From a virus (lineage: Duplodnaviria > Caudoviricetes), in the IMG/VR virus record IMGVR_UViG_3300027740_000003, positions 160,001 to 224,000 of that record: a DNA stretch of 64,000 nucleotides, one strand, 5' to 3'. Under the pieces are notes generated by a model. The model worked only from the letters and a program-made list of their open reading frames with translations. It made no database searches and was not told the DNA's origin. Below are positions 455 to 11,588 of this stretch, piece by piece. Made by a program: the position numbers and the translations under genes. Each line of letters starts with the position of its first letter. The first letter of the stretch is position 1.

Positions 455-624
455 ATATTTTGTATAAAACGTGTAGCGCACACTTAAACATTCACACTGT
501 TTTAATGGAGTTAAACCATATATCCTTCCGCTGGAACGATATGTCTTCCGCTGGAACGATATGTTTCCGAACTTAACAGTGGATTATTTCCAGGCTCCTA
601 ACTGGGACTTTTTATACAAAATAT
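455..624 (-). ncRNA. Candidate structured RNA closed by a 15-bp perfect inverted repeat
   Basis: atattttgtataaaa (455-469) and ttttatacaaaatat (610-624) are exact reverse complements; several nested internal helices; ends 3 nt before the tRNA at 451. Confidence 0.4.
525..564. repeat. 20-bp tandem direct repeat, 2 copies
   Basis: cttccgctggaacgatatgt at 525-544 and 545-564, followed by partial ttccg. Confidence 0.95.
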
Positions 625-1064: not shown

Positions 1065-1156
1065 AAGAATATGTTCCGATTCGAACGGAATTTAACCAAT
1101 ATAGGACTCGAACCTATTTAACCTCGTCAGGTTGGGAAACCCATCCCCATATTCTT
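1065..1156 (-). ncRNA. tRNA-like RNA with 9-bp acceptor-like stem and two T-arms
   Basis: AAGAATATG/CATATTCTT closes GGGA-TGGGTT-TCCC, AACCT-GACG-AGGTT, ATAGG-TTCGAGT-CCTAT and TTCCG-TTCGAAT-CGGAA; fills the gap between tRNA-Asp and tRNA-Pro. Confidence 0.6.
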
Positions 1157-1483: not shown

Positions 1484-1605
1484 AGGCCTGGGAGAGATTT
1501 GAACTCTCGACCCGGAACTTATCTTTGGATCTTCCAGACTTGAACTGGAAAGAGACGTGTATCTAGATCCCACAGGTTCCCGCTCTTCCTCTGAGCTACC
1601 AGGCC
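1484..1605 (-). tRNA. tRNA-His(GUG) with 50-nt anticodon-loop insertion (putative intron about 1569-1520)
   Basis: GGCCTGG/CCAGGCC acceptor with possible A-1:U73 pair, GCTC/GAGC D-stem, GGAAC...GTTCC anticodon stem enclosing CTGTGG[50 nt]A, GAGAG-TTCAAAT-CTCTC T-arm. Splice register, and so anticodon identity, is ambiguous. Confidence 0.75.
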
Positions 1606-1633
1606 TTGTATTAAAAAAAATATCACTCAATTA

Positions 1634-1824
1634 CTAAAGCTTGGGGTGCTCTGCCATTGAGCTAGTTATTCTGATTATTCATTTCTTCGAGCCGGCACAA
1701 AGACGGCAGTTAGCTACCTGCCTAGCATTGCTTTTGTCCTAAGACATAACGGCTGAGAGGAAATTGCCTTTGCAGGGCTGATTTCTTCAGAATAGCAAGG
1801 ATTCGAACCTCTTCTCCCCATTAG
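1634..1824 (-). ncRNA. Circularly permuted tRNA-like RNA (3' half precedes 5' half)
   Basis: TGGGG-AGAA-GAGG-TTCGAAT-CCTT-GCTATTCTG (1820-1788), then 114 nt, then CAGAATAAC-TA-GCTC-AATGGCA-GAGC-A-CCCCA (1673-1642); the acceptor-like and anticodon-like stems pair across the halves. Confidence 0.7.
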
Positions 1825-1907: not shown

Positions 1908-1991
1908 TGGTGATGGTTGGATTTGCACCAACACAGGATAACCGGGAGTTTTACAGACTCTTGCCTTCGCTAAAAATAGGCGAGCACCACC
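1908..1991 (-). tRNA. tRNA-Tyr(GUA), long variable arm, atypical T-loop
   Basis: GGTGGTG/CATCACC acceptor, CTGTAAA anticodon loop, 12-nt variable region, GTTGG-TGCAAAT-CCAAC T-arm, A73. Confidence 0.85.
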
Positions 1992-7643: not shown

Positions 7644-7832
7644 TCAACCATTTTTATACCCATCCTTCGCCCAACCACTTCCTTTTAAATGAAATGGTGG
7701 GGCTCCTGATATTAATCTTTTAGCAGATTCTTTTCCACATTTTGGGCATATTTTAATGACAGGATCTGTAATCTTTTGATCTTCTTTCCATTCGTGTTTG
7801 CAATATTCACAGATGTAATCGTATTCTATCAT
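7644..7832 (-). CDS. FmdB-family zinc-ribbon protein
   Basis: YDYICEYCKHEW...CPKCG...RLIS...F.LKGSGWAKDGY. Confidence 0.85.
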   Translation of the reverse strand: MIEYDYICEYCKHEWKEDQKITDPVIKICPKCGKESAKRLISGAPPFHLKGSGWAKDGYKNG

Positions 7833-8752
7833 TTGAAAAACTCCATAGCATCAGCATATTTGAATCCACATCTAGAAGCAAAGGTTTTATCAGACGTCAT
7901 GTCTCCAACCATAATGCATTCTTTAGGATTTAGTTTATATTTCTCTACAAACTCTATCCCTATTCCAGGCATAGGTTTCCTCTTCCATGATATAATCGGA
8001 GGAACTTTAGATGTATCAAATTGATACTCTATATCTAACCCAATCAATTTATTAGTATGTTCAAAACAAGCAGTGGCAGCTTCTATTGTTAAATCTCCTT
8101 TTGCTACACCGCTTTGATTAGATGCTCCTAATAATTTGTATCCTTTTTCCAGGTATGATTTTAAAACCTCTGTTCTTCTTGGCAATAATTTTATTTGATC
8201 TGTGCTTGTTGGGAACATACCGTTTCCATTAACAATTTCTCTTAATGTTCCGTCATAGTCCAATATTAATGCTTTATTAACATATTCTGATTCCCATTTC
8301 CTAGTAAAGTTATTCTTAATTATTTCTGAAAATCCCTCGTTTATATTTGGTTTTTCAAATTCTTTGTTGGCTTTGAATAATACTGCCGGTGGAAATGTGT
8401 TTGGATCTTTTTCCTTTTTTAACTCTTCGGGAGTTAATACTTTGCCAAATTTAGAACACATTCTCCTACATGCATTAACTTGACAATCTTCTATACTGGT
8501 AGTTTGCCAGATACATTTAATTTCAACATTATATTTCTCAGCCAGATCAATAAAAGGTTTTCTATCTGAAACTTTAGTAAACAAATTATCTATAATAACA
8601 TCTTTTGATGAAGATATTAGAACTTCTAGTTTAGGCAGAAGATCAACAACTTTTCCGCCTACAAGATCTCTGTTAAGTCTTTCGTAGGTTGGATATTGGT
8701 TAGTTATTGTTGTTTTTCCTGAAGCTGGCAAACCACAAACAAGTAAAATCAT
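7829..8752 (-). CDS. Bifunctional polynucleotide kinase (AAA_33) / HAD phosphatase, Pnkp-like
   Basis: N-terminal GLPASGKT P-loop; C-terminal DYDGT, RKP and MVGD..SD HAD motifs. Confidence 0.85.
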   Translation of the reverse strand: MILLVCGLPASGKTTITNQYPTYERLNRDLVGGKVVDLLPKLEVLISSSKDVIIDNLFTKVSDRKPFIDLAEKYNVEIKCIWQTTSIEDCQVNACRRMCSKFGKVLTPEELKKEKDPNTFPPAVLFKANKEFEKPNINEGFSEIIKNNFTRKWESEYVNKALILDYDGTLREIVNGNGMFPTSTDQIKLLPRRTEVLKSYLEKGYKLLGASNQSGVAKGDLTIEAATACFEHTNKLIGLDIEYQFDTSKVPPIISWKRKPMPGIGIEFVEKYKLNPKECIMVGDMTSDKTFASRCGFKYADAMEFFK

Positions 8753-9866: not shown

Positions 9867-10037
9867 CTACTTTGCAATAGTCGTGCCAACATTTGGACGG
9901 CGAATATAAATTTCTAGGCCTAAAATTTTAATAAATGAATAATTCCCCATAATTTTTGTAAATTGGTTTCTTCTGAAGCAGAATAACCAATCTGTTGTGG
10001 GAAGCCAATTAAACCAAACGTTTCCTAGTTTTCTCAT
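9867..10037 (-). CDS. Small hypothetical protein (56 aa, not in track)
   Basis: MRKLGNVWFNWLPTTDWLFCFRRNQF...; ATGA overlap with the Thg1 stop. Confidence 0.5.
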   Translation of the reverse strand: MRKLGNVWFNWLPTTDWLFCFRRNQFTKIMGNYSFIKILGLEIYIRRPNVGTTIAK

Positions 10038-10786
10038 TTTTCATCTTGCTCCAAAGCTTTTTCAATTATTAAACTGTCCTCCGAGAAAATTGGAGTTTCC
10101 GAGCTGGCATAGATTTTACTTCTTATAGATCCAGAATCAGATGTTTCTTTTGCCCTACATAAACATATTCCAAGTTTTTCCCAATCTGATAATTTGTCCC
10201 AATCTATTCCTTTGTTTTTTAACATTAATTTCATCTCTTTACATGTTTTGTTCATTAGCTGCTTATGAGAGAAATTTGCTTGTGCTAGACTTGATACGCT
10301 ATTTCTTATCGTGTCAAGTTGCCTCCAATAATAATAATTCACCACATCTTCTCTTGGAACTACGAAGGCCCGGCAATCAAAGAGAGCGGGGTTCTTGGGA
10401 ACGCTTTTCCCACTGGCGAGGATGAATTCTAAAACAGCTTTGTTGAAGGCTGCTGTAGCGATACTGGCAGAGACTGAAACGACCTTAGACAGCTTACTGC
10501 CAAACCAGGGCTGGGTATTGAATTTCCGGTATGGATTTATTAAAATAGAGATCTCGTCAGATTGAGTATAAGCAAACTCAGCTCCGGATATTTGTTTAAT
10601 GAGAGCCGATGAGGTTTCAATCATTCCGTGTCGGATCGCAGGATCCCATGGTTTATCAAACTTTTTGGTATACGAAGAAAAATGGCAACCATCAACACGA
10701 ATAATAATTGGAGACCGGGGAACTAAAAATATTTCACTAGACAATTCATATTGTTTCATCCTTTTTCCCAAATTATTAAATTTCAT
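10034..10786 (-). CDS. thg1: tRNA-His guanylyltransferase Thg1-like 3'-5' polymerase
   Basis: RMKQYE, IIIRVDG..F, YTQSDEISIL, FDCRAF and YYWRQ.D motifs. Confidence 0.92.
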   Translation of the reverse strand: MKFNNLGKRMKQYELSSEIFLVPRSPIIIRVDGCHFSSYTKKFDKPWDPAIRHGMIETSSALIKQISGAEFAYTQSDEISILINPYRKFNTQPWFGSKLSKVVSVSASIATAAFNKAVLEFILASGKSVPKNPALFDCRAFVVPREDVVNYYYWRQLDTIRNSVSSLAQANFSHKQLMNKTCKEMKLMLKNKGIDWDKLSDWEKLGICLCRAKETSDSGSIRSKIYASSETPIFSEDSLIIEKALEQDEK

Positions 10787-10790
10787 ATAT

Positions 10791-11588
10791 TTAATTTATT
10801 TTTTTGTGGAAGGCTCTGTTGCAGATATAGCATTTGTATGCCTGTCTTGTTGCAACTTTATTATTGTAAGTTTTACCATTTTTAAAAGTTTTATTTAAAC
10901 AAAATTTGCACGGAACATTTTCTTTATCATTTAATAATTGATAATTTTTTCTCCAAATATCTGATTTTCTATCCATAAAATCAAATACAGGATCTATTAA
11001 ATCAACAAATTTTTTAACATTTTTTTTATTAGTAATATACAATATCGGTTGAAACTTGTTTTTACGATCTGTATACCCTAAAGATGTTTTTATATCAAAT
11101 TTTGACAGTTCTTTTTGCAGAATTTTTATATCATTTTCTGAAAATGAATGCGTAGATAGTTTTATTGAATAACGTCCTTTTTTGATAACAATTGATCCGT
11201 CATCTGCAAACCAAGTTGCTATTATTTCTGCATTTAAACACAAATCTTCAGGAATTGTCTTTTTGCCATTTTTATACCATTTTTTATGTAATGATGTAAA
11301 AAATCTATTACATTTTGTTCTTAACCTGATGTTATAATAAATTTTATTAGTTCTTTTGTCGAAAATAGCCCCTTCTGATACGGACTTTTCTGTAAGAAAA
11401 TTTATTAATTTATTTTTGCTAAAAAGAAGGTAATTTTTATCTTTTATTGCTCGGGTTAATTTTAAACAAGCATTTTTGCCAAATTTGTGTAGTTCAAGAT
11501 GTCCGTCTCCTAAAATTAACCCCAAAACATGATTCATTATATTCATAATTAAATGAAAAATTATTACCAGACATGTAATTATTTTCAT
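10791..11588 (-). mobile_element. Double-motif LAGLIDADG homing endonuclease with C-terminal zinc ribbon
   Basis: VLGLILGDGHL and IIATWFADDGSI motifs; CKFC...CYIC tail. Confidence 0.88.

Follow-up and report, generated by a model that had tools for sequence, protein, structure and literature searches.

To our knowledge, protein-dependent tRNA splicing is regarded as archaeal and eukaryotic, bacteria and their viruses being known only with self-splicing group I introns in tRNAs, and group I is the only established intron type in bacterial tRNA genes. The tRNAs of Lak megaphages carry "enigmatic introns", one of which "itself may encode a tRNA" (Devoto et al., 2019, Nat Microbiol, PMC6784885). 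With lengths of 79-114 nt, these introns interrupt the anticodon loops of tRNAs for Tyr, Phe, Thr and Gly close to 36/37 or 37/38, and tRNA is their only Rfam hit (PMC6784885; Table S6, Fig. 4). By our own reading of Table S6 (PMC6784885), all four Lak introns given there consist of a conserved 4-5-bp 5' hairpin, an A/T-rich spacer and a nested tRNA-like module (acceptor and T-arm) that ends 2-3 nt before the predicted 3' splice site. In the literature that we searched, including a 2026 jumbo-phage review, the Lak introns were the only published precedent that we found, and no mechanism was described. Here we analyse a 50-nt intron in a tRNA-Asn(GUU) gene of a soil phage with 35% G+C. The window, that is, the whole stretch of 64,000 nt to which coordinates refer unless marked as genome positions, comprises bases 160001-224000 of the 435,004-bp IMG/VR virus record IMGVR_UViG_3300027740_000003. 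Its genes are almost all on the minus strand and include phage functions such as a tail protein, ribonucleotide reductase, helicases and a PhuZ-like tubulin.

We consider it probable that this locus is a phage tRNA-Asn(GUU) gene whose conserved intron, shaped like the top half of a tRNA and placed at 35/36, is spliced out by proteins. As in the Lak phages, a short non-ribozyme insert with a tRNA-like module lies in the anticodon loop of a huge-phage tRNA. Unlike the Lak introns, it has no 5' hairpin and A/T-rich spacer and starts directly with an acceptor-like helix; and whereas those introns are longer and hold a nearly full nested tRNA, this one is a top half with a flush 5' site and a 4-nt tail, set inside the anticodon of tRNA-Asn. 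The two are related in principle and different in design. The gene and its parts are:

1484..1605, minus strand: intron-containing tRNA-Asn(GUU) gene (Rfam RF00005, ARAGORN -i, model R1, exon identity)
1605-1572, minus strand: 5' exon, with the acceptor 5' strand, D-arm GCUC-AGAGGAA-GAGC, GGAAC and C32 U33 G34 U35
1571-1522, minus strand: intron of 50 nt, between U35 and U36, with boundaries taken from intron-less homologues
1571, minus strand: intron G1' (parse)
1570-1565, minus strand: intron acceptor-like 5' strand (parse, fold)
1564-1550, minus strand: intron linker with a 4-bp hairpin (parse, fold)
1549-1545 and 1537-1533, minus strand: intron T-like stem (parse, fold, covariation)
1544-1538, minus strand: intron T-like loop UUCAAGU (parse, fold)
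1532-1527, minus strand: intron acceptor-like 3' strand (parse, fold, covariation)
1526, minus strand: intron A72' (parse)
1525-1522, minus strand: intron 4-nt tail AAGA (parse)
1521-1484, minus strand: 3' exon, with U36 A37 A38, GUUCC, variable loop GGGUC, T-arm, acceptor 3' strand and U73

The sequence 1605..1484 (-) is a real, intact tRNA gene. A first-pass annotation, made from the letters alone, had described an otherwise canonical cloverleaf with 57 nt between the anticodon-stem strands GGAAC and GUUCC, and this is what the minus strand contains. All four exon stems are perfectly Watson-Crick paired (acceptor 7 bp, D 4 bp, anticodon 5 bp, T 5 bp). Against the Rfam tRNA model (RF00005) the gene reaches 50.3 bits, its anticodon loop holding 53 extra nt, and against model R1 it reaches 118.4 bits. 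The precursor body is 122 nt long, or 72 nt without the intron, with U73 as discriminator, A-1 at position 1606 and no encoded CCA. Default ARAGORN overlooks the gene, and ARAGORN -i reports a tRNA-His(gtg) with a 50-nt intron.

Five splice registers had been derived in the first-pass annotation, with the products CTGTGGA or CTGTGAA (His), CTGTTAA (Asn) and CTGATAA (Ile). On re-derivation all of them are correct; the choice among them, which had been left open, is fixed by homology at 35/36, an option that had been listed and not stressed. Among 50,697 GenBank phages, the best matches of the 5' exon are annotated tRNA-Asn genes, namely those of Cellulophaga phi40:1 and phi38:1, Vibrio 2.275.O and V07, and Aeromonas TSW001. 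The tRNA-Asn of phi40:1 has the same D-arm (GCTC-AGAGGAA-GAGC), the loop CTGTTAA, a variable loop RGGTC, U73 and a similar T-stem, and its acceptor stem differs from that of this phage by compensatory pairs. When the exons are joined at 35/36, they share 76-79% identity with three tRNA-Asn genes from cultured phages, versus at most 63% with the other tRNAs of the phage (His 60%, Ile 55%). In addition, a 389-kb IMG/VR record (L056) holds an uninterrupted tRNA-Asn with a 29-nt stretch, GAGCGGGAACCTGT-TAAGTTCCGGGTCGA, that is identical to the joined exon ends; this stretch is the anticodon arm and reads CTGT-TAA. The exon bases that flank the intron are U on either side, whereas its own first and last bases are G and A. 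Since U35 is thus followed by G and U36 is preceded by A, the boundaries are unambiguous.

These comparisons identify the gene as tRNA-Asn(GUU), with GUU in the loop CUGUUAA, a body homologous to tRNA-Asn genes and the intron exactly between U35 and U36, which resolves the ambiguity between His, Asn and Ile. The discriminator U73 differs from the G73 of E. coli tRNA-Asn and is common to the phi40:1 and L056 genes. The 435-kb genome has no second tRNA-Asn, and Asn codons are among the most used (62 per 1000, with His at 16 per 1000). A tRNA-His(GUG) and a tRNA-Ile(GAU) are both present in the genome.

The His call of ARAGORN -i could nevertheless be taken at face value, as a tRNA-His(GUG) with its intron at 36/37 or 37/38 that would receive G-1 from a nearby Thg1-like enzyme, for which there is a gene at 10034-10786. 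A-1 would then pair with U73, and the first-pass annotation had seen in this pair the 8-bp acceptor typical of tRNA-His. The complementarity is there; the His-like interpretation is not supported. A tRNA-His would be expected to carry G-1 together with C73 or A73, and this gene has A-1 with U73; moreover, U73 is common to intron-less tRNA-Asn genes and the exons are 60% identical to the phage's own tRNA-His versus 79% to tRNA-Asn. The intron-less homologues read GUU, in CTGTTAA between the same flanks, the 3' exon starts with U and not with G or A in all six family members described below, and the intron geometry fits 35/36. The phage also already owns a tRNA-His with A73, suited to Thg1. The gene was therefore not classed as tRNA-His, an identity that we regard as very improbable.

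The intron itself folds as a GGAUCU/AGAUCC helix closing a UCCAG-UUCAAGU-CUGGA hairpin. This structure is both the minimum free energy fold and the centroid of the isolated intron, where it accounts for 40% of the ensemble, and it is also the centroid of the whole precursor. The stem-closed T-arm mimic that had been proposed is thus recovered, with a correction to its size: one A had been counted in both stems, which are 6 bp and 5 bp long and not 6 and 6. The 20-nt T-arm of the intron is identical at 20/20 positions to the T-arm of the phage's own tRNA-Leu(UAA) and at 18/20 to that of its tRNA-His. In terms of geometry, the insert has a 7-layer acceptor and a 5-layer T stem, followed by N73 and three nucleotides in the place of NCCA. 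Reading the acceptor-like helix as 6 bp or as 7 layers is equivalent, and a length of exactly 50 nt together with the Asn loop follows only from 7 layers and a 4-nt tail. As parsed here, the intron corresponds to a tRNA top half spanning positions 1 to 76, and its ends sit at the mature-end positions. A full top half that belongs to a conserved family goes beyond the T-arm mimic of the earlier description.

Pattern scans revealed six more interrupted tRNA-Asn genes (L019-L023 and L042), with introns of 44-49 nt that all lie between U35 and U36. L019 is in a 318-kb viral contig, L020-L023 are metagenome contigs, and L042 is a 24.5-kb viral contig in which the D-arm is different. Model R1 dropped false positives, 4 of 5 hits in one scan and 29 of 30 in another. 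A single parse holds for all seven members: G1' stands opposite A72' (a G·A first layer) and is followed by a 6-bp helix, for which there are five different sequences among the seven; then come a linker of 9-15 nt and a T-like stem of 4-5 bp with a 7-nt loop U-(U/G)-C-R-A-N-N, in which U54, C56 and A58 are kept. A continuous 12-nt 3' strand leads into a 4-nt tail beginning with A in every intron (AGAG in 5/7, AAGA in this phage, ACCG in L019). The loop halves CUGU and UAA, which together make the tRNA-Asn loop, are unchanged in 7/7 members. The intron of the present phage belongs to this family by its U35/U36 site and its top-half architecture.

A covariance-model alignment of six members (A3), fitted to the model, has 96% of its cells paired, with both-sided changes at 26 of 32 pairs. 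These values were reached by none of 500 shuffles, and slid controls were at most 46% paired. Covariation extends to 5/6 pairs of the intron acceptor-like helix, 5/5 pairs of the intron T-like stem and all variable exon stems, and RNAalifold recovers the same fold unaided. Because intron and exon helices covary across the family, the interrupted tRNA-Asn gene appears to have stayed functional. That diverged genes with the intron have kept the exon cloverleaf is a strong argument against a pseudogene, and it favours a gene from which tRNA-Asn must still be made. The first-pass annotation had proposed comparing loci with and without the insert, and had reasoned that a pseudogene would show decay of the tRNA body in homologues. 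The homologues instead keep the body by compensatory changes.

This bears directly on whether the gene might be dead, its insert being a recombination or insertion scar made of a fragment of another tRNA gene that landed in the anticodon loop. Such an origin would suit the identity of the insert T-arm with tRNA-Leu(UAA) (20/20) and its closeness to tRNA-His (18/20), and LAGLIDADG homing endonuclease genes lie nearby. We nonetheless give a dead gene very little credence: all exon stems are perfect, removal of the insert length restores exactly a 7-nt loop, and the same site and architecture are found in seven diverged genes, whose exon and intron helices have both undergone compensatory changes.

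The Asn-family pattern had 0 matches in 596 Gb of bacterial and archaeal genomes; no direct orthologue was found, the intron core and the exon-gap-exon pattern being unmatched in viral contigs and the tRNA region being unmatched in GenBank phages. An 80-aa open reading frame (ORF) beside the tRNA is unique to this record, and no protein, nuclease included, is common to the neighbourhoods of all seven loci. At L001:9007-9105 (+) (IMGVR_UViG_3300036668_000183), a 99-nt tRNA-like gene shares 24 identical nt (D-arm and GGAAC) with the present gene; there GGAAC is followed by CGGTTCA..., and a 44-nt middle unlike the intron occupies the place of the anticodon loop.

A different possibility is that no tRNA is made by splicing and that the composite RNA, or the mini-tRNA together with the halves, is functional as such, for instance by diverting host anticodon nucleases or defence proteins that bind tRNA. 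The same array has non-decoding tRNA look-alikes (a YrlA-like permuted element at 1634-1824 and a five-armed element at 1065-1156), and the enzymes that we propose below for splicing are candidates only. Phage tRNAs are described as shaped by anticodon-nuclease conflict (PMC10264068). We judge this possibility to be improbable, although less so than a dead gene or a tRNA-His, because a decoy would need no intact, Asn-specific body. By contrast, the invariant loop halves rebuild the tRNA-Asn loop exactly, all four exon stems are kept by compensatory change, and the gene is the only tRNA-Asn of a phage with heavy Asn codon use.

How would the intron be removed? Self-splicing is excluded because 50 nt is too short, as had been pointed out before; no Rfam family except tRNA matches at E ≤1, Intron_gpI included, and no ribozyme signature was found in the intron. 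Group I introns of bacteria, plastids and phages, for example in tRNA-Leu(UAA), likewise interrupt the anticodon loop, often after U. They are, however, about 200 nt or longer, with a P1-P9 core and a terminal G; a group I intron was rejected here on the grounds of the 50-nt length, the lack of any such Rfam match at E ≤1 and the final A of this copy. Archaeal and eukaryal introns, which are cut by EndA/TSEN and joined by RtcB or Trl1, are closer in that they are short, lie in the anticodon loop, are removed by proteins and need a ligase, the last two being features that we infer for the present intron. They differ in their bulge-helix-bulge, in which a 4-bp helix at the splice sites separates two 3-nt bulges, and in their site at 37/38 and not 35/36. 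No such motif that would draw on the anticodon stem and take out 50 nt emerged from a scripted search, and neither EndA (PF01974) nor RtcB was found in the phage genome, in agreement with the first-pass annotation on both the motif and the splicing endonuclease. The tRNA set of the phage is of bacterial type. Its tRNA-Tyr, of 83 nt, is type II, the form found in bacteria, and therefore points to a bacterial host.

There is a single structural clue to the cuts: each splice site falls on one of the "mature ends" of the mini-tRNA. The top-half shape of the insert, which spans positions 1 to 76, makes tRNA-end-processing enzymes candidate nucleases. RNase P, RNase Z and CCA-adding enzymes all act on minihelices made of an acceptor and a T-arm, and the bacterial RNase P has a preference for U(-1) and G(+1). 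The 5' junction has U-1 and G+1, and the geometry amounts to 12 layers and a 4-nt tail. If an RNase P-type enzyme cut 5' of G1', U35 would end in a 3'-OH; a further endonuclease, RNase Z/BN-like or of another kind, would cut behind the 4-nt tail and give U36 a 5'-phosphate. The chemistry of RNase P and RNase Z yields 3'-OH and 5'-phosphate ends that are ready for an Rnl1-type ligase, and the nick in the anticodon loop may then be sealed by the phage T4 Rnl1-like enzyme, with Pnkp-like and SAK-HAD enzymes at hand if the ends require healing. Splicing would yield a tRNA-Asn of 72 nt that has CUGUUAA as its loop and the junction ...GGAACCUGU-UAAGUUCC... (also written as GAGCGGGAACCUGU joined to UAAGUUCCGGGUC). 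We put forward only tentatively, and with less confidence than removal by proteins as such, that phages in this way use a third tRNA-splicing route, not described before, in which a mini-tRNA is excised by the cell's RNase P and an RNase Z/BN-like enzyme and the exons are rejoined by an Rnl1-type ligase.

The embedding of an acceptor/T-arm mimic that sets RNase P and RNase Z cuts is known from mascRNA in MALAT1, from mitochondrial tRNA punctuation and from minihelix substrates. In those cases the RNA is released without ligation of its flanks, and none lies inside the anticodon of another tRNA. The sealing step is closest to the repair of PrrC damage in T4, where an Rnl1-type ligase together with Pnkp reseals a nick in the anticodon loop; homologous enzymes are proposed here. 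In T4, however, a host nuclease damages a host tRNA between 33 and 34 and no segment is removed. Phage Pnkp and Rnl1 are homologues of the healing and sealing domains of yeast Trl1.

The first-pass annotation had called for a phage nuclease, yet to be identified, plus a ligase, or else for an unspliced RNA with a function of its own. For splicing, both enzymes would indeed be needed, but for the ligase there are candidates. The phage encodes a 405-aa homologue of T4 RNA ligase 1 (Rnl1; genome 424142-425359) and two further ORFs with a PF09414 RNA-ligase domain, and a Pnkp-like gene lies 6 kb from the tRNA-Asn gene. The predicted Pnkp-like protein matches Pfam AAA_33, PNK3P and HAD, PNKP catalytic domains in the PDB (E 1.6e-12) and the NCBIfam PNK-3'Pase; it is a candidate end-healing enzyme that we link to the intron by inference. 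Its relatives in three other records (L006-L008) have no tRNAs nearby, and those records hold no similar gene. The other large intron-bearing phage, G004 (318 kb), also encodes Rnl1. Only about 25 gene families are common to G004 and the present phage, among them Rnl1, RlaP, a SAK-type HAD phosphatase, a CCA-adding enzyme and a Thg1-like protein; RlaP is the best conserved, at 56% identity. Judged by these homologies, a sealing toolkit, and a healing one if needed, is available in the phage. Besides Rnl1, the genes concerned are:

7829..8752, minus strand: Pnkp-like enzyme of 307 aa, with an N-terminal kinase and a C-terminal HAD 3'-phosphatase (Pfam, PDB, NCBIfam)
genome 397292-398191: RlaP, common with G004
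genome 143149-144486: SAK-type HAD domain protein, common with G004
genome 330802-332643: PolyA_pol+HD CCA-adding enzyme, common with G004

Several points weigh against the proposed splicing and its enzymes. The family is small, with only seven members, and the fit of alignment A3 was made to the model. The search patterns forced CTGTGG and TAA, and in one scan also CAAGAG, which inflates the invariance of G1'G2' and of TAA and partly that of the tail; the intron start was left free in only one scan. Huge phages commonly carry RNA-repair kits whether or not they have introns, so that the presence of such kits is permissive and not diagnostic. The tails are AAGA, AGAG and ACCG, not CCA, and we know of no bacterial endonuclease for which cleavage behind an arbitrary 4-nt tail is on record. 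The normal RNase Z cut, after N73, would place three extra nucleotides on the 3' exon; a cut of this kind after the intron discriminator was rejected, as it would give a 10-nt anticodon loop. The G·A first layer, and pairing of U35 with A73', might shift the RNase P cut. Finally, a phage-encoded RNase Z was rejected, because the only ORF with a metallo-β-lactamase (MBL) fold is Apyc1-like. This 266-aa MBL-fold protein (genome 26253-27053 (-); L024:1297-2097) matches Apyc1 (PDB 7u2r, E 2.7e-25), an anti-Pycsar cyclic-nucleotide phosphodiesterase, and is by homology probably encoded by an anti-defence gene.

The main rival to excision by tRNA-end-processing enzymes is a yeast/plant-type "heal and seal" pathway, in which a dedicated phage or host endonuclease would recognise the mini-tRNA and leave a 2',3'-cyclic phosphate and a 5'-OH, to be healed by the Pnkp-like enzyme and sealed by the Rnl1-like one. 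The proximity of the Pnkp-like gene, the Rnl1 homologue and the SAK-HAD and RlaP genes common with the other intron-bearing huge phage all fit this scheme. So do features of the intron, since the non-CCA tail (AGAG in 5/7) and the invariant G·A layer resemble a specific recognition signal and not generic tRNA ends. RNAalifold further predicts C32-G76' and U33-A75' pairs with a 3-nt UAA bulge near the 3' site in most members, but both pairs are missing from the copy in this window. Moreover, no nuclease gene is common to the seven neighbourhoods and no candidate enzyme was found, and BLASTP detected no Pnkp homologue in G004, a record that is only 85% complete. We therefore regard heal and seal as unlikely, although less so than a decoy, and prefer excision of the mini-tRNA by RNase P and an RNase Z/BN-like enzyme followed by Rnl1-type rejoining.

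Whichever enzymes act, an intact tRNA-Asn is split in its anticodon by an insert that is not self-splicing and has no bulge-helix-bulge, and this arrangement recurs in at least seven phage or phage-like contigs. If the gene is spliced, some bacterial or phage nuclease-ligase pair performs tRNA splicing, and the tRNA-top-half shape offers a concrete hypothesis for which enzymes do so. Phage RNA ligases and Pnkp would then gain a housekeeping role beyond undoing anticodon-nuclease damage, and under the third route the expression of the phage's only tRNA-Asn would depend on phage-encoded RNA repair enzymes. Splicing would also account for the under-counting or mislabelling of phage tRNAs by bacterial-mode tRNA finders, as with ARAGORN here, where the gene is missed by default and called His when introns are allowed.

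Other unusual tRNA-like elements surround the gene. Directly upstream, 1634-1824 (-) is a circularly permuted tRNA-like gene in the order T-arm and acceptor 3' strand, about 110 nt, acceptor 5' strand, D-arm and an open anticodon stem CCCCA/UGGGG. The element at 1065-1156 (-), between tRNA-Asp and tRNA-Pro, is closed by a terminal stem of 9 bp, AAGAATATG/CATATTCTT, and contains ATAGG-TTCGAGT-CCTAT and TTCCG-TTCGAAT-CGGAA as T-arm hairpins. A sub-threshold tRNA match of 82 nt (1909-1990 (-), 24.8 bits) is not called by ARAGORN; its acceptor and T-arm are good, its D and anticodon stems are poor, and its loop could read CUGUAAA (GUA, Tyr-like).

Two further long tRNA-like genes elsewhere in the genome were excluded from the intron class because they have no inner T-arm. 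One is a 247-nt tRNA scaffold at genome 157257-157503 (-), 2.5 kb before the window, with a GGCCATA/TATGGCC acceptor, a D-arm and a T-arm; about 170 nt replace its anticodon loop, and no group I or other Rfam family matches at E ≤0.1. The other, at genome 68005-68118 (-), is 113 nt long and scores 37.9 bits; it has a long hairpin resembling a variable arm, about 30-40 additional nt surround its anticodon arm, and the ARAGORN call "Glu with intron at 30/31" looks unreliable. Genome tRNA scans showed no recognisable tRNA-Ser in the phage.

The phage's tRNA-His(GUG), at genome 157163-157237, has A73 and no encoded G-1, with U at position -1. A73 without an encoded G-1 is the tRNA-His arrangement served by Thg1 in eukaryotes. 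The Thg1-like 3'-5' nucleotidyltransferase gene at 10034-10786 (-) (PF04446, 110.6 bits) lies 8.5 kb from the tRNA-Asn gene, a LAGLIDADG homing-endonuclease gene (10791-11588 (-)) immediately adjoins it, and G004 also has a Thg1-like gene. Downstream of the tRNA array, at about 540-580 (-), a non-coding tandem direct repeat consists of two copies of ACATATCGTTCCAGCGGAAG, and the DUF4116 protein family has at least 14 ORF copies in this phage.

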